A stretch of 64,000 nucleotides of DNA from Minisyncoccota bacterium (GTDB lineage: Bacteria > Patescibacteriota > Minisyncoccia > Phycocordibacterales > PALSA-1337), in the NCBI GenBank assembly GCA_041671485.1, contig JBAZBL010000003.1, forward strand, positions 25,412-89,411. The letters run 5' to 3'. The position numbers and the translations under genes are program-made. This document shows, in pieces, positions 52,751 to 57,135 of this stretch. Under the pieces are notes generated by a model. The model did no database searches. It saw only the letters and a list, made by a program, of their open reading frames with translations, and had not been told where the DNA came from. Positions within the stretch are counted from its first letter, which is position 1, and every line of letters starts with the position of its first letter.

Positions 52751-53470
52751 TTACTTCCCTTTTCTATTGACTTTCCAATCATTGATCTTTGAATGGTGCC
52801 CACTCAATAAGACTTTTGGTACACGATATTTCTTTTTCCCAAATTCTATAACTTCTGGCCTTGTATAGACATCTGGACTTGCAATCCTCTCTTCTTCGAT
52901 TGATAGTTTATCACCAAGTACACCATCTATTCTCCTTGCAATAGAATCAATAACTATCATTCCAGGCAATTCTCCACCTGTCAGAGTATATGGTCCAACA
53001 GAGATATCTGTCATCTTGAACATCTTCTTTATTCTAGCGTCTATACCTTCGTATCGTCCACATATTAAAATAATATCAGTATATTTTTTTAGTGTGTCCG
53101 CAACCTTGTTTGTAAACTGTTTTCCTGACGGACTAAAAAATACAATCTTTATTTTTTTATTTTTATTTTTTATCTTATTTATCGTCTCTTCTATCGCTCT
53201 TGCGATTGGCAATGCCTCAATAACCATACCCGGTCCCCCACCATATGGTCTATCATCAATTCTTCTTTCTGCATAAGTCATCTTTTTACTTTTTTTCGAA
53301 GGCTTGCCCGCCTCCGCTCGTATGAGCGAGCTTCGGCGTGGTAAAACGAAATCTCTAGGATTGTAATATTCAATCCCAATATATCCTTCTTTTTGCGCTC
53401 TCTTTACTATTGAAACATTGAGATACGATTCGAAGCTTTCAGGAAATAATGTAATTATGTGGAAATTCAT
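52751..53470 (-). CDS. trmD: tRNA (guanine37-N1)-methyltransferase TrmD, carrying a roughly 25-aa GC-rich in-frame insertion
   Basis: MNFHIITLFPESF...DDRPYGGGPGMV...ILICGRYEGIDAR...GGELP motifs. Confidence 0.85.
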   Translation of the reverse strand: MNFHIITLFPESFESYLNVSIVKRAQKEGYIGIEYYNPRDFVLPRRSSLIRAEAGKPSKKSKKMTYAERRIDDRPYGGGPGMVIEALPIARAIEETINKIKNKNKKIKIVFFSPSGKQFTNKVADTLKKYTDIILICGRYEGIDARIKKMFKMTDISVGPYTLTGGELPGMIVIDSIARRIDGVLGDKLSIEEERIASPDVYTRPEVIEFGKKKYRVPKVLLSGHHSKINDWKVNRKGK

Positions 53471-53482
53471 GGGATCTCACAC

Positions 53483-53818
53483 TTATTCCAATTTGAGGTC
53501 TGCCATTGCTTCATCTACAGACTTTGAAGCTTTTAGAGCAGCCGAAGGCATCTGATCCTTGAGTCCTCCAACAGGCTCATTTATCTTGAGGTTAACGCGA
53601 GAATTATTCTTCATACCCACGACACGGAGTAATGTACGGATTGATTTGGCAGTATTGCCTTGACGACCAATAATCTTGCCCATATCTGCTGCAGAAACTT
53701 CGAGAGTAAGCAGTACTCCCATCTCATCTACTGTGCGAACAATCTTGACCTGATCTGGATAGTCTACCAAAGCTTTGATAACCAATTCGAGAAACTGCTG
53801 ATCTGCGTGCTGATTCAT
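53483..53818 (-). CDS. KH-domain RNA-binding protein (YlqC/UPF0109-like)
   Basis: GKIIGRQGNTAKSIR KH motif; sits in the usual position between rpsP and trmD. Confidence 0.7.
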   Translation of the reverse strand: MNQHADQQFLELVIKALVDYPDQVKIVRTVDEMGVLLTLEVSAADMGKIIGRQGNTAKSIRTLLRVVGMKNNSRVNLKINEPVGGLKDQMPSAALKASKSVDEAMADLKLE

Positions 53819-53960
53819 GATATTTATAAGCTAAATTATAATCGTACAGTTCGCTGTACTACAAATATTCTATCAGAAAAATAATTACCGTCAATCGTTT
53901 TTGTTTCAAGTGATAATGTAATATTTTGAATCCTCTTCGGAGGCACCATAAAGTAAGATT

Positions 53961-54992
53961 TTAAAATGACCGCAGATATTCCTCAAGCAATCGGTCATAT
54001 ATTGGTTGCAATATGCACTGATAATTATAGGCATTACCATGCTTTAACATACCCAAATAAGACGAGACTGTTTCGAACTTTGGCTCGTTATTGCATTTAT
54101 TCATCATTCTTCTTCTGGTAGTTGTCCTTAACACCCGATGATCTGGAAAGTGTATCCAGCCCAAAAAGTCAACGCCCGAAGCAAAAGTCTTGAGAAATGT
54201 TTTGTCGGGATGTAATGACAAATGGAGTTTTTCTTTCAAAAATTGGTCCATATCTGTAAGCATAGATAAAAGTAATTTGTGATCAGTGTTAAGGATTACA
54301 AAATCATCGGCATAACGAATATAGTATTTGACTTTGATTTTATGCTTCATGAATTGATCGAATTTATTCATGTAAATATTCGCGAATAATTGAGAAGTTA
54401 AATTTCCTAGTGGCATACCAACATTTGGGTCACCCGAATGAAAACTGTTTATTATTTGATCTAACAGATGAAGAATGTCCCGGTCGGGAATATAGGAATT
54501 GAGTATGTCAAATAATATTTGATGATCTATTGAAGCAAAGAACTTTCTAATATCACATTTCAAAACCCAAACAGTTTTTGTATGATTGCACGATGCTTGT
54601 CTGGCAAACTCGCTAAATTTTTTGAAGGCTCTATGTGTACCTTTGTCGATCCTACAAGAATATGAATCAGAGATGAAAGTTCGGTCAAAGAATGGGTATA
54701 GTTTCCTGTAAAGTGCTCGATGTAAAATTCGATCTCTTACAGTAGCTTTATGGATATTACGAGGTTTGGGATCATTGATTTTGAAGGGCATATATGGACC
54801 ATGTACAAATGTTCTATTTTTCAAATCTTTGTGGAGTTGTAATAGGTGTCTCATTAACTGTAATCGAAATTCAGCTACATCTTCCCTTCTGTCTTTGTCG
54901 GCTGAAAATTCATTCCACGCCTCTAGTAAATTCTCAATGGATATGATAGCTTCGTAGTTATGGCTGAATTGAATTCGTCCCATATTTCTCAT
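53961..54992 (-). CDS. Diversity-generating retroelement (DGR) reverse transcriptase
   Basis: 343 aa; RT motifs including PLGNLTSQLFANIYM (the DGR-type I/LGxxxSQ motif rather than the group II QGxxxSP) and YIRYADDFVIL (YADD). Lies directly downstream of the TR on the same strand. Confidence 0.85.
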   Translation of the reverse strand: MRNMGRIQFSHNYEAIISIENLLEAWNEFSADKDRREDVAEFRLQLMRHLLQLHKDLKNRTFVHGPYMPFKINDPKPRNIHKATVRDRILHRALYRKLYPFFDRTFISDSYSCRIDKGTHRAFKKFSEFARQASCNHTKTVWVLKCDIRKFFASIDHQILFDILNSYIPDRDILHLLDQIINSFHSGDPNVGMPLGNLTSQLFANIYMNKFDQFMKHKIKVKYYIRYADDFVILNTDHKLLLSMLTDMDQFLKEKLHLSLHPDKTFLKTFASGVDFLGWIHFPDHRVLRTTTRRRMMNKCNNEPKFETVSSYLGMLKHGNAYNYQCILQPIYDRLLEEYLRSF

Positions 54993-55017
54993 AATACCCC
55001 CCCCACGGTTTTTACCA

Positions 55018-55404
55018 GTTGTCGAAAAGCTTAAATCAAGCTACAAACTTTGGCATGAATATCACGGACTCGTACCGAAAACACAAAGATATTCGCTTGG
55101 CAATAGAATAGATAATCTCTTAGTAGAAAGCATCGAAGCGACAGTAACTGCGACATTTTTATCAAAAGAAGAGAAATTACCGTGGATACGACTGGCAATT
55201 CGAAAAACCGATACATTGAAAGTTTTACTCATGATTTTATGGGAAACTAAATCAATAGATGATAAAAAATATATTGCTCTTTCTGTGAAATTAGATGAGG
55301 TCGGCAAGATGCTCGGTGGTTGGAGTGGACAGCTTATAAAATCTACCTCTACTAAAACTATAGTGAATAAACAAAACTCTCCAGCAAAAGCAGGAGAGAA
55401 ATGA
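55018..55404 (+). CDS. Avd-like four-helix-bundle protein (accessory variability determinant family) on the opposite strand to the RT; no canonical start codon as sequenced
   Basis: Frame open from 54973 to the TGA at 55402-55404. Translation ...KLKSSYKLWHEYHGLVPKTQRYSLGNRIDNLLVESIEATVTATFLSKEEKLPWIRLAIRKTDTLKVLLMILWETKSIDDKKYIALSVKLDEVGKMLGGWSGQLIK matches the 23S-rRNA-IVS/Avd four-helix-bundle pattern. An ATG at 54960 is one frame off, across a C8 tract. Confidence 0.45.
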   Translation, partial: VVEKLKSSYKLWHEYHGLVPKTQRYSLGNRIDNLLVESIEATVTATFLSKEEKLPWIRLAIRKTDTLKVLLMILWETKSIDDKKYIALSVKLDEVGKMLGGWSGQLIKSTSTKTIVNKQNSPAKAGEK

Positions 55405-55412
55405 AGAGAGTC

Positions 55413-55534
55413 GCCGACACCGCCGCAGGGTTGTTGTCTTTGAAGTCGTTGTCAAGCCAGTTGTAGTTCCAGTCCCACCTGCCGCCGTTCCAGTTGAGGT
55501 AACGAACATAGAGGTTGTCATCGGCGCTGCGGTA
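55413..55534 (-). repeat. DGR template repeat (TR)
   Basis: 122 nt aligning gap-free with 55861-55982. All 17 differences are at TR adenines (sense = - strand). The TR sense strand is rich in AAC codons. Confidence 0.85.
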
Positions 55535-55778
55535 TCGTATGAAGCACCATCCATACCACCACCCCTCGGATACCCTCAGGGCTGAATCGTATTTGGCATC
55601 GTAATGCCTTAGCACCTCATACCAAGTATTTTCATTTTTTAATGAAGTTCTGCATACACCACTCTACCCAAAATCTTGGTCGTGGATATTCTCGATGTAT
55701 GGATACTGGTTTCGGTAGCAAGCAACATTAGTCGCTCACATATTCACCTACTCCCGCCACATCTTACCATATAAATCA

Positions 55779-55802
55779 GCCCCGCGCGTTGTCGCACGGG
55801 GC
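55779..55802 (-). other. GC-rich stem-loop downstream of the VR (candidate DGR homing-enhancing hairpin/cruciform)
   Basis: gccccgcgcg-ttgt-cgcacggggc: 10-bp stem (one C-A mismatch) with a 4-nt loop, about 58 nt beyond the IMH-like end of the VR. Confidence 0.45.
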
Positions 55803-55853
55803 CAAGGTCAAAGGTCACAGGTTCTGAAGAACAAAGTGACTGATGTTCAAGAG

Positions 55854-56474
55854 CTAACTTGCCGACACCGCCGCAGGGTCGAGGCCCCTGAAGTCGTTGT
55901 CAAGCCAGCGGCAGTTCCAGCCCCACCTGCCGCCGCCCCAGCGGAGGCAACGAACATAGAGGTCGTCATCGGCGCCGCGGTAGATGGTCCCCCAGAAGAA
56001 GATGTAGCGGGTGTTTCCGTTTTCATCCTTTTTCCATGCCTCGGGAATGAGGTGCGGGTTCTTCAGGAGATAATCCAAAACATTGGCGTTGAGGACTCGT
56101 TGCTTGGCGAGTTCCTTGCGCAGGTCATTGCCACGGATGGCATTGCCTTTCTTCTGGAGCTTGGACAACCAAAACTCGATTTTCTTGCCATCGAGATAGA
56201 GGTCGTCTCCACGGCATTCGAGCTTGGCAACCTTGCCACTCTGGTGTTCTTCCACCTTCCAGCCGTCAGGAAGGTAGGGGTCGGCACCGAGGTCAATGGC
56301 GTGTTCGATAGGCTTGATTTCATACAAACCCAGTTGGACACCCCTCACACGACCGAGGAAATCCCCGACAGTGAGCGCTTTGACTTCTTCCAGCGATTGG
56401 AAGCCGTTGCGGTTGAGCGCATGCTCGATTTCTTGAGCCAAACCAACACCGAGCGTTAACTTTATATTATCCAT
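55854..56474 (-). CDS. DGR target (variable) protein, 206 aa, with C-terminal VR
   Basis: Intact ORF whose last 40 codons or so are the VR. GC content is far above the genomic background. No obvious signal peptide. Confidence 0.8.
   Translation of the reverse strand: MDNIKLTLGVGLAQEIEHALNRNGFQSLEEVKALTVGDFLGRVRGVQLGLYEIKPIEHAIDLGADPYLPDGWKVEEHQSGKVAKLECRGDDLYLDGKKIEFWLSKLQKKGNAIRGNDLRKELAKQRVLNANVLDYLLKNPHLIPEAWKKDENGNTRYIFFWGTIYRGADDDLYVRCLRWGGGRWGWNCRWLDNDFRGLDPAAVSAS
55861..55982 (-). repeat. DGR variable repeat (VR) at the 3' end of the target gene
   Basis: Cognate of the TR. Encodes YRGADDDLYVRCLRWGGGRWGWNCRWLDNDFRGLDPAAVSA, against TR-encoded YRSADDNLYVRYLNWNGGRWDWNYNWLDNDFKDNNPAAVSA. 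Confidence 0.85.
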
Positions 56475-56539
56475 AATGTGTTCTTTTTCTGTTTCGTGGA
56501 CATGTCCTTTTCGAGGACTGGTCCAAACTGTTGGGCTCG

Positions 56540-56586
56540 CAATTTAGCTTTGCCACAGCAGAGAATGGCCTAAAAAGCTACTTTCT
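56540..56586. repeat. Perfect 13-bp inverted repeat (ttgccacagcaga / tctgctgtggcaa) upstream of the DGR target gene
   Basis: Seen directly; 21-nt spacer; no T-run on either side, so it looks more like an operator or structural element than a terminator. Confidence 0.35.
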
Positions 56587-56784
56587 GCTGTGGCAAATGC
56601 AAGTTAGCATATCAAAGAACTTTACGCTAAAAGTCTATCACACCAATAACTTAAAGTCAAGGGCTTGAATTCACCGAGGAGGAATAATCCCACCTATTTT
56701 GCACTCTATTGAGTAAAGTAGATTTTAAGTTGTTGGTGCTACAGGTGGGGTTGTTACTGAAGCCTCTTTTGCTGTAATCTCAAC

Positions 56785-57135
56785 TTATTCTGACGGAACA
56801 GGTACAGGTTCAGTCACAACCACTTTCGGAGCTTCTTTCACCTCTTCCTTTTTGATCGGAGTTTTCCTAGGTAATGCATTCATCTTTTTGCCAGCAATTA
56901 CCTTCTGCGAAACAAGATAATTGTGAATTGTTACAGATGTTTGTGCACCTTTTGATATCCAATACTTGATACGTTCAACATTCAATTGTTCCAATTTATT
57001 CTTGAGTCTAGAATCATACCAACCCAAATTTTCTAGATATTTACCACTCTTTGGTCCATTTTTGGAATCAGTCAAAACCAACCGAAAAGTTGGTTCGTGT
57101 TTCCTACCAGTGCGTTGCAGTCTTATCATCAACAT
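56785..57135 (-). CDS. rpsP: 30S ribosomal protein S16 (with short C-terminal extension)
   Basis: MLMIRLQRTGRKHEPTFRLVLTDSKNGPKSGKYLENLGWYD is the canonical S16 N-terminus. Confidence 0.85.
   Translation of the reverse strand: MLMIRLQRTGRKHEPTFRLVLTDSKNGPKSGKYLENLGWYDSRLKNKLEQLNVERIKYWISKGAQTSVTIHNYLVSQKVIAGKKMNALPRKTPIKKEEVKEAPKVVVTEPVPVPSE

Follow-up and report, generated by a model that had tools for sequence, protein, structure and literature searches.

A C8 repeat that breaks the avd reading frame in a CPR-type DGR: a candidate phase-variation switch at the overlapping starts of avd and the reverse transcriptase gene

What is to be made of a DGR whose avd gene is conserved along its whole body and has no start codon, and in which the break is a run of eight cytosines lying just where avd and the reverse transcriptase (RT) gene begin? 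Among natural systems that diversify proteins, DGRs (diversity-generating retroelements) are the most extreme, and they are abundant in bacteria of the candidate phyla radiation (CPR). The DGR considered here lies in a 64,000-nt stretch of a Minisyncoccota genome (hereafter the window) and its features are collected in Table 1. It shows an adenine-only pair of template repeat (TR) and variable repeat (VR), with 17/17 mismatches at TR adenines and none elsewhere, an RT adjacent to the TR and, following the VR, a GC-rich inverted repeat like the one described downstream of VR/IMH in the Bordetella phage DGR (PMC5758913). The RT is most similar, among NCBIfam families, to group II intron RTs and is 49-93% identical to the Avd-adjacent RTs of 151 related loci; exact-product look-ups with starts at 54992 and 54983 returned no record. 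The target gene matched no Pfam or NCBIfam family, and no Rfam family was found in a scan of 54800-56000. The first-pass annotation of this DNA regarded the antisense avd as a departure from canonical DGRs. That view has to be given up, as a reverse-strand avd between TR and RT is the B3 arrangement, TR-(avd)-RT, which accounts for 90% of CPR DGRs (Wu et al. 2018, PMC5758913), and the RT is antisense to avd in 151/151 related loci. CPR B3 DGRs have the same order and orientation as here (target/VR, TR, reverse-strand avd, RT). The BPP-1 DGR (avd-TR-brt) shares the Avd fold, the adenine-specific TR/VR differences and the GC-rich post-VR hairpin, but unlike here its avd precedes the TR on the same strand, and Avd sequence identity is ~15%. 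BPP-1 is not known to have a repeat tract.

Table 1. Coordinates of the features of the DGR locus within the window
Feature	Position	Strand	Description or basis
DGR reverse transcriptase	53961..54983	-	RVT_1 E 1.2e-23; start ATG 54983 from relatives
Head-to-head overlap of avd and RT starts	54960..54983	.	24 nt, ATG-N18-CAT; cluster survey
avd 5' segment, conserved ATG 54960 through tract	54960..55004	+	MAELNSSHISHNTPP; homologue N-termini
avd frame	54973-55404	+	open, 143 codons + TGA; translation IRPIFLIIPPPRFLPVVEKLK...
C8 simple-sequence repeat (G8 on RT strand)	54997..55004	.	+1 offset; C7 or C10 in frame
Avd body (four-helix bundle), C-terminal tail and TGA stop	55006..55404	+	Pfam/NCBIfam profiles, AlphaFold, Foldseek
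Conserved hairpin (55377-55398), then UUUUGUUU (55369-55376)	55369..55398	-	just 3' of TR (TR-sense strand); covariation
Template repeat (TR)	55413..55534	-	122 nt, 31 adenines
GC-rich hairpin downstream of VR	55776..55805	-	13-bp stem, 9 GC pairs, 4-nt loop; computed
Variable repeat (VR), 3' end of target gene	55861..55982	-	17 mismatches to TR
DGR target gene	55854..56474	-	206 aa; ORF

The product of the avd frame is a four-helix bundle of the Avd family. This had been proposed from the letters of the sequence, with an HMM search as the check, and the frame matches both Pfam bAvd (PF22296; E 2.5e-11, 44.4 bits, cut-off 40) and NCBIfam DivGenRetAVD (NF033474; E 2.3e-15, 56.8 bits, under the equivalog cut-off of 80). 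Position 1 of the Avd profile falls at residue 14, directly past the tract. No PDB sequence matched the corrected Avd at E <= 1, and therefore a fold search was used for a structural match. The AlphaFold model (pLDDT 82.6) has helices at residues 14-31, 36-61, 65-91 and 97-134, and Foldseek matched it to Bordetella phage Avd (4dwl; target-normalised TM 0.84-0.88, rmsd 1.6-1.9 Å) and also to Avd chains of 8ub7.

The window holds no intact translatable avd gene. The earliest ATG, GTG or TTG within the body frame is TTG 55216, codon 82 of the open frame, whilst the ATG at 54960 sits in the neighbouring frame (translation MAELNSSHISHNTPPTV), which continues to a TAA at 55032. The Avd frame is without a usable start because the C8 tract offsets ATG 54960 by +1. 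A C7 version of the window would read MAELNSSHISHNTPPRFLPVV..., in agreement with the family N-terminus M.ELN..H....TPP(P).RFLPV; the N-termini of homologues, M.ELN..H....TPP(P), are those of the frame-corrected product, whose sequence across the junction is ...NTPPRFLPVVEK... Moreover, in 14 of 16 clusters of relatives without a tract the equivalent ATG shares the frame of the Avd body. On these comparisons ATG 54960 is the real avd start. On recheck, the first-pass annotation proved right in its sequence statements: the avd frame is open on the + strand and has no ATG, the C8 tract parts it from the ATG of the neighbouring frame at the positions given, and loss of one C would join the two into a product that fits the homologues. 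It was also right that avd stops before the TR, whereas the distance is 8 nt (from 55404 to the TR/VR homology) rather than 9 nt. Apart from the frame break, the Avd body of the window is undamaged, and it shares 91% identity with a relative that reads in frame. Gene calls on at least 4 contigs give this Avd as a stub of 57 aa with an ATG start; a 62-aa stub with a TTG start gave no record on exact-product look-up. An alternative genetic code, in which TGA would be read as sense, was tried by inspection of the sequence and still leaves avd with no start.

The tract sits at avd codons 13-15, where its length sets the reading frame. It is the sole run of seven or more C or G in the window, in which composition predicts ~0.09 C runs of at least 8, and the 432 kb of flanking sequence contain only two other C or G runs of at least 8. 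CCC makes up 8% of the Pro codons of the window's genes and CCCCCC is used in 0/28 of their PP dicodons. Coding need alone is insufficient to explain the tract, which is over-represented and conserved beyond it. Two independent Logan assemblies of this strain, SRR18595301 and SRR6484324, also carry C8 (contigs L167 and L168; 100% identity over 2687 and 1170 nt), which is therefore no random assembly error. For the window's own strain C8 is the only length seen, in three assemblies, and SRR18595301 has exactly the VR of the window; the allele appears to be a stable OFF state in the populations sampled. Look-ups with the KH-protein and S16 genes recovered same-strain contigs that end inside the RT or the target gene, short of the tract. 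The tract evidence throughout is assembled consensus, with many contigs from low-coverage MAGs. A C8 uniform among reads, combined with the lack of a profile match, had been named in advance as counting against the Avd and switch reading; C8 is uniform at consensus level and for this strain only, and the profile match exists. A synonymous form of the tract, CCACCTCCA, would be a "locked ON" version of it.

The picture is different among the relatives. The survey of them covered ~130 (133) species-level clusters, of which 117 have a poly-C tract of 6-13 and 16 have no tract. An in-frame ATG is found in 36/117 poly-C clusters (31%), a fraction that does not differ from 1/3 (p 0.62), against 14/16 of those without a tract (Fisher p 1.9e-5). 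Using a narrower search range, the non-ON clusters with an upstream ATG comprise 36 at +1 and 26 at +2; using a wider one, all 116 tract-bearing clusters could be assigned, 36 being ON, 50 at +1 and 30 at +2. Concordance of frame state with the nearest neighbour is 0.31 (0.35 by chance) and only 2/24 for neighbours at least 85% identical, and by this measure frame state is without phylogenetic signal. Moreover, tract length is polymorphic between near-identical genomes. Three contigs that trace to Rifle data sets (L014, L109 and L139) have zero substitutions across 3.39 kb and carry C9, C8 and C10, respectively. Further same-strain pairs are C10 and C11 (L087 and L088, from Hainich) and C9 and C8 (L047 and L063), and another two loci, L064 and L153, differ by one 4-nt repeat unit. 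In some lineages the poly-C is replaced at the same site by (CAAT)7, (CAAC)7, (CAAC)3 or (GA)6. Typical tract lengths are C8-C11; as many as ~75-79% of C7-C8 tracts are non-ON, and longer tracts show no higher share. To judge from their sequences, the OFF loci show no decay: the open frame of the Avd body is complete, with a median of 120 codons in ON and OFF loci alike, and TR/VR pairs are equally clean in both (93-94% of the mismatches fall at A, with a median of 1 at other bases). A GTG or TTG (a Leu/Val codon) lies near the start of the body in 64/81 non-ON clusters and might permit some initiation, although such alternative starts showed no enrichment in OFF over ON loci (p 0.2-0.26).

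We read the locus as the start junction of a B3 CPR-type DGR, ordered target/VR, TR, antisense avd and RT, in which avd codons 13-15 are written as pure poly-C. The tract is probably hypermutable as a simple-sequence repeat. Its length would change in the DNA in vivo when strands slip and mispair during replication, and this would bring the four-helix-bundle body into register with the conserved ATG or take it out of register, gating the synthesis of Avd. In the Bordetella phage DGR, mutagenic retrohoming depends on Avd (PMC5758913), a requirement demonstrated for that DGR alone, and therefore the tract would switch the whole diversification machine ON or OFF in a stochastic, heritable and probably reversible manner, a function for which it may have been selected. 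C8, the allele of the window, would be OFF (+1) and C7 or C10 would be ON. We put the probability of a slipped-strand phase-variation switch on avd, with the window in a stable OFF state, at roughly 0.6. Phase variation had already been suggested in the first-pass annotation. Its proposed comparison with orthologous DGRs yielded C8/C9/C10 variants on otherwise identical contigs, and length polymorphism, randomised frames and repeat replacement strongly support the idea at the level of the clade; for the window's own strain it lacks a second allele, as only C8 is seen there.

Such a switch would resemble the contingency loci of Neisseria, Haemophilus and Campylobacter, in which poly-G/C or CAAT/CAAC-type repeats lie in the 5' coding region. 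Shared features are a repeat within the first ~15 codons, its typical length of C8-C11, ON and OFF alleles in all three frames, length polymorphism and, in some CPR lineages, the same tetranucleotide motifs. It differs from them in that the hosts are free-living or episymbiotic CPR bacteria, that the switched gene encodes a mutagenesis accessory factor and no surface or restriction-modification protein, and that the tract is common to the 5' region of a divergent overlapping gene. The text of PMC5758913 as searched mentions no repeat tract, out-of-frame avd, overlapping start codons or post-TR hairpin, and full-text searches on DGRs brought up no earlier description of homopolymer, phase-variation or frameshift control of avd of this kind. 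If the switch is real, a stochastic switch sits atop a targeted mutator and only the changing subpopulation bears the cost of hypermutation. Tract phase could then be used to stratify surveys of DGR activity from existing metagenome read sets. Moreover, about two thirds of CPR avd genes would be liable to be miscalled by gene finders as truncated, missing or GTG-started.

The tract also adjoins the start of the RT gene. The starts of avd and RT overlap head to head, with the His8 codon of each gene being the antisense of its partner's ATG; the spacing is ATG-N18-CAT in 55/133 clusters and ATG-N15-CAT in 26, with 1-8 clusters at each other spacing. On the RT strand the modal layout is Gn-TAnnnT-N7-ATG, with a distance of 13 nt between tract and ATG in 36 of ~100 clusters, and TAnnnT is found at this exact offset in 67% of anchored loci vs 0-4% at other offsets. 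On a rival view the tract owes its retention to the RT strand, where it would be a G-rich 5' element acting as Shine-Dalgarno, as standby site or as promoter spacer directly upstream of TAnnnT, with breaks in avd tolerated as a side-effect or Avd started elsewhere; the modal layout and the fixed offset of TAnnnT both speak for this. The first-pass annotation had likewise taken the G8, 4 nt upstream of an RT start, for its Shine-Dalgarno region. That start, ATG 54992, lies within the RT ORF but is not conserved, being ATC in the closest relative, and the case for a Shine-Dalgarno is weak because the conserved RT start, ATG 54983, is 13 nt from the tract, which is long for such spacing. Nor is there a G-run in the tetranucleotide lineages, (CAAT)n and (CAAC)n, or in the dinucleotide or CCGCCGCCG lineages. 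A generic promoter scan gave nothing above chance near the avd/RT junction, and the only -35 box seen by eye in the window upstream of the RT-side TAnnnT is TCGACA, 23 nt off and too far to be workable. Alternative starts for Avd are un-enriched in OFF loci and the window has none before codon 82. We therefore consider a role on the RT strand alone to be improbable.

An expression mechanism indifferent to the genomic frame deserves more weight, though we still think it unlikely. Ribosomes are prone to shift by +1 at CCC-C and stall on PPP. RNA polymerase could slip on the tract, so that mRNAs gain or lose one or two C, or stalled ribosomes could slip on CCC CCC C; either would yield some full-length Avd at any tract length whilst the genomic frame drifts. 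An ON fraction at the neutral 1/3 with no phylogenetic signal is equally expected under such expression; the Avd bodies and TR/VR pairs of OFF loci are intact, and the stable C8 OFF allele of the window keeps a fully conserved Avd body. Precedents exist in endosymbiont poly-A tracts, where polymerase infidelity rescues interrupted genes, and in CCC-C sites that allow +1 ribosomal frameshifting; as here, the homopolymer-interrupted gene stays conserved. However, the precedents concern runs of A or T, or a shift in one direction only, whereas here the runs are of C and both offsets are common. The shift required is thus inconsistent in direction across the 116 clusters, and a single directional programmed frameshift fits poorly. 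Moreover, homopolymer re-pairing would not work in the same way where the tract is (CAAT)n, (CAAC)n or (GA)n, and the length differences between identical backgrounds are present in the DNA. Two further explanations remain. In one, avd has been lost and the DGR is a permanently inactive, decaying pseudogene, as the fixation of C8 in all assemblies of the strain and the identical VR in SRR18595301 might suggest. Against this, the Avd body is lesion-free and close to its in-frame relative, TR/VR mismatches remain confined to adenines, and OFF loci across the clade are as intact as ON loci, which makes decay very improbable. In the other, also raised in the first-pass annotation, the true sequence is C7 or C10 and the homopolymer was miscalled in sequencing or assembly. 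Frame breaks are indeed limited to loci with a repeat tract and many contigs come from low-coverage metagenome assemblies, but Illumina consensus calls are reliable at C7-C8, two independent assemblies agree on C8, and a tetranucleotide locus also differs by one unit. With ~69% of tract clusters non-ON and a non-ON share that is no higher in longer tracts, the pattern is unlike that of homopolymer miscalls, and for the window we find error very unlikely.

Beyond the proposed phase-variation switch on avd, a second conserved element may bear on how this DGR is expressed. A hairpin just 3' of the TR has 95.6% of its cells paired across relatives, vs 39-69% when slid, with 119 double-sided changes vs 40 in shuffles and with U-G pairs that are valid on the - strand only. 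A fold of the whole region 55330-55425 was no better than shuffles (z -0.71), and the hairpin is thus one supported by covariation, not by energy. It is conceivable, if rather doubtful, that the repeat is a two-sided control point of the CPR DGR clade. It would set the frame of avd and adjoin a TAnnnT-N7-ATG box possibly driving a leaderless RT mRNA, or else serve as a frame-independent recoding site at a poly-proline stall; a terminator-like hairpin would end the TR RNA within the antisense avd tail, so that template RNA, Avd and RT would each have a transcript under its own control, with a hypermutable tract as the gate. The hairpin is antisense to the tail of Avd (KQNSPAKAGEK), whose conservation is easily mistaken for that of a protein motif when it would really reflect an RNA hairpin on the opposite strand. 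Both arms of the hairpin were located in 83 clusters, and in at least 16 of these the avd stop itself lies within it.

Between the template repeat (TR) and the reverse transcriptase (RT) gene of the diversity-generating retroelement (DGR) lies an open + strand frame, 54973-55404, which matched the Pfam bAvd profile above threshold and NCBIfam DivGenRetAVD (E 2.3e-15), the Avd profile beginning at residue 14, immediately past the C8 tract (54997-55004; G8 on the RT strand). The AlphaFold model (19 homologues as input, pLDDT 82.6) has four helices. It can be overlaid on Bordetella phage Avd (4dwl) with an rmsd of ~1.7 A and TM 0.88 normalised to target, and likewise on the Avd chains in 8ub7, a DGR RNP. 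These profile matches and superpositions identify the frame as the accessory gene avd, as the first-pass annotation proposed. Its coordinates and frames were rechecked and also hold: the Avd frame has no ATG, GTG or TTG upstream of 55216, and ATG 54960 opens the neighbouring frame (MAELNSSHISHNTPP..., stop at 55032), the two frames joining within the tract, which is the sole C/G run of ≥7 across the 64-kb window. More than 1000 "four helix bundle" proteins of the candidate phyla radiation (CPR) match the Avd body at 57-91% identity, and full-length homologues begin M.ELN..H....TPP(P).RFLPV. A tract one base shorter (C7), the change suggested previously, or C10, would yield exactly this N-terminus. 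The closest relative (L001/L002, 91% identical) shares the synteny KH protein - RT - avd - target - S16; its tract site reads CCCCCCACAC and its avd is in frame. In L003, a relative from Hainich, the tract is C11 and avd is once more shifted by +1.

The DGR on the - strand of the window is complete, comprising target gene, variable repeat (VR), hairpin, TR and RT (see table). All 17 mismatches between TR and VR fall at TR adenines. A Pfam and NCBIfam profile search with the 206-aa target protein gave no match; the VR-encoded C-terminus of this protein contains ...YRGADDDLYVRCLRWGGGRWGWNCRWLDNDF... The opposite strand of avd had been read as a departure from canonical DGRs; it is no anomaly but an already known architecture. 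As defined in the available text of Wu et al. 2018 (PMC5758913), architecture B3 is TR-(avd)-RT with avd on the reverse strand, the same layout as in the window. RT is antisense and head-to-head to avd in 151/151 loci where this is visible, out of 155 retrieved from species genomes in GTDB and from JGI/ENA metagenomes.

Features of the DGR and its junctions (window coordinates)
Feature	Position	Strand	Remark
DGR target gene, 206 aa	56474-55854	-	VR at its end
VR	55982-55861	-	repeat pair with TR
GC-rich hairpin, after VR	55805-55776	-	
TR	55534-55413	-	
Hairpin	55398-55377	-	antisense to Avd tail KQNSPxKxGEK; then UUUUGUUU
U-tract	55376-55369	-	3' of hairpin
TAnnnT box, RT side	54996-54991	-	
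RT ORF	54992-53961	-	RVT_1 E 1.2e-23
TAnnnT box, avd side	54947-54952	+	

A plain homopolymer sequencing error had been offered as one explanation of the broken frame. We reject random error, as C8 recurs in two Logan (per-run) assemblies from different runs, L167 (SRR18595301) and L168 (SRR6484324), which are 100% identical to the window over 2687 and 1170 nt, respectively; the VR of L167 is likewise identical. Within the collection searched, avd of the window's strain is called as the same 57-aa stub on every contig bearing it, and no in-frame variant of this strain was found among the protein matches.

The 155 loci form 133 clusters at 95% flank identity; in 117 of these the tract is a run of 6-13 C, most often 9-10. 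The conserved ATG is in frame (ON) in 36/117 poly-C clusters (31%) vs 14/16 clusters without poly-C (Fisher p 1.9e-5), and the ON share is statistically indistinguishable from one third (p 0.62). A wider frame assignment placed 36 clusters in frame, 50 at +1 and 30 at +2. Nearest relatives do not tend to have the same frame (concordance 0.31 vs 0.35 by chance; 2/24 for neighbours ≥85% identical). Among C7-C8 tracts 75-79% are already non-ON, and longer tracts show no higher share, unlike what homopolymer miscalls would give. Out-of-frame (OFF) loci show no decay: the Avd body ORF is intact in all of them (median 120 codons in ON and OFF alike) and TR/VR pairs are equally clean in both, with 93-94% of mismatches at A and a median of one non-A mismatch. 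GTG/TTG codons near the Avd body start are no commoner in OFF than in ON loci.

Comparison of orthologous DGRs bore out the suspected length variation. Three loci from different assemblies, identical over 3387-3397 nt outside the tract, have C9 (L014, in frame), C8 (L109) and C10 (L139). Further pairs are C10 and C11 (L087, L088; 3 substitutions in 1.1 kb), C9 and C8 (L047/L058, L063), C13 and ATTAC11 (L055, L123), and L064 and L153, one 4-nt unit apart. At the poly-C position one sub-lineage has (CAAT)7 (L028/L122), (CAAC)7 (L037) or (CAAC)2-3, and L071 has (GA)6; in these repeat loci (L028/L122, L037, L064/L150/L153, L071) the junction lies ~20-45 nt upstream of the Avd body. Such repeats encode no PPP, and on the RT strand they cannot provide a G-rich element for ribosome binding. 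This argues that mutability itself is the conserved property. Codon usage in the window's long ORFs agrees with this, as CCC makes up 8% of Pro codons and CCCCCC occurs in 0/28 PP dicodons. The locus flanks, 432 kb in all, contain just two other C/G runs of ≥8; both are homopolymers of 8, ~2365 nt downstream (L014) and ~2522 nt upstream (L063) of the Avd body start.

The simplest account is that the tract is a contingency-locus phase switch on avd (probability roughly 0.58), in which slipped-strand mispairing would alter tract length and so toggle the avd frame. Since Avd is needed for mutagenic retrohoming, as shown for the Bordetella phage element (available text of PMC5758913), toggling would turn the DGR on and off heritably but reversibly. 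A less likely alternative is frame-independent recoding, through slippage of RNA polymerase or of the ribosome on CCC..PPP; it too predicts that frames are distributed neutrally and that the genes are preserved. A classical programmed frameshift fits poorly with the occurrence of two offsets (+1 and +2) and with the tetranucleotide lineages. We infer that the window's locus combines a simple-sequence-repeat phase switch with a B3 DGR, and its OFF (+1) allele looks stable.

The proposal that G8, 4 nt upstream of the RT start, serves as a Shine-Dalgarno region is weak in the light of the relatives: ATG 54992 is not conserved (ATC in L001), and the (CAAT)n, (CAAC)n and (GA)n lineages have no G-rich element. 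The conserved start is ATG 54983 (MGRIQFSH...), giving 340 aa vs 343 aa from the first ATG (54990-54992). The modal RT-strand layout is Gn-TAnnnT-N7-ATG, the tract ending 13 nt before the RT start in 36 of ~100 clusters. ATG 54960 and ATG 54983 form a 24-nt head-to-head overlap (ATG-N18-CAT in 55/133 clusters, N15 in 26/133), so that each start codon, read on the opposite strand, encodes the conserved His8 of the other peptide. Exactly 7 nt upstream of the ATG there is a TAnnnT box, on the avd side in 93% of loci and on the RT side in 67%, vs 0-20% at other offsets. The two boxes may mark face-to-face promoters of leaderless mRNAs, only a lead given that both overlap coding sequence.

At its other end avd does stop just before the TR, and this region overlaps a conserved hairpin. 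On the TR-sense strand, directly 3' of the TR, CGCAAC-UCUCUUCA-UUU is followed by a 9-bp hairpin and then invariant GAGUUUUGUUU. The hairpin covaries strongly: in an alignment of 119 sequences, 95.6% of cells pair vs 39-69% with the partner slid, with 119 double-sided changes vs 40 in shuffles. Its many U-G pairs are valid only on the - strand and would be C-A mismatches on the avd strand. Among the 83 clusters with both arms located by pattern, at least 16 have the avd stop inside the hairpin and still conserve the 3' arm. The Avd tail KQNSPxKxGEK, which hardly varies, is unstructured in the AlphaFold model and is really a nucleic-acid element. The element has no match in Rfam; it resembles an intrinsic terminator or a structural module at the 3' end of the TR RNA.

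We know of no literature description of the head-to-head start overlap or the antisense hairpin. Both are absent from the searched passages of Wu et al. 2018 (PMC5758913). A full-text literature search, with Paul et al. 2017 outside its coverage, found no description of a conserved hypermutable repeat that puts roughly two in three CPR avd genes out of frame.

Lastly, in the region 52751-57135 the DGR lies within the conserved ribosomal operon, flanked by rpsP (S16) and, at its other end, by trmD and the gene of a KH-domain protein. The insertion site is the same in the closest relative, L001/L002, and the available text of Wu et al. 2018 (PMC5758913) associates CPR DGRs with ribosomal protein genes. 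Logan contigs of the window's strain (L084, L085, L086, L167, L168) break within the RT gene at 54300, 54327, 54554 and 54581, and one of them terminates within the target gene.
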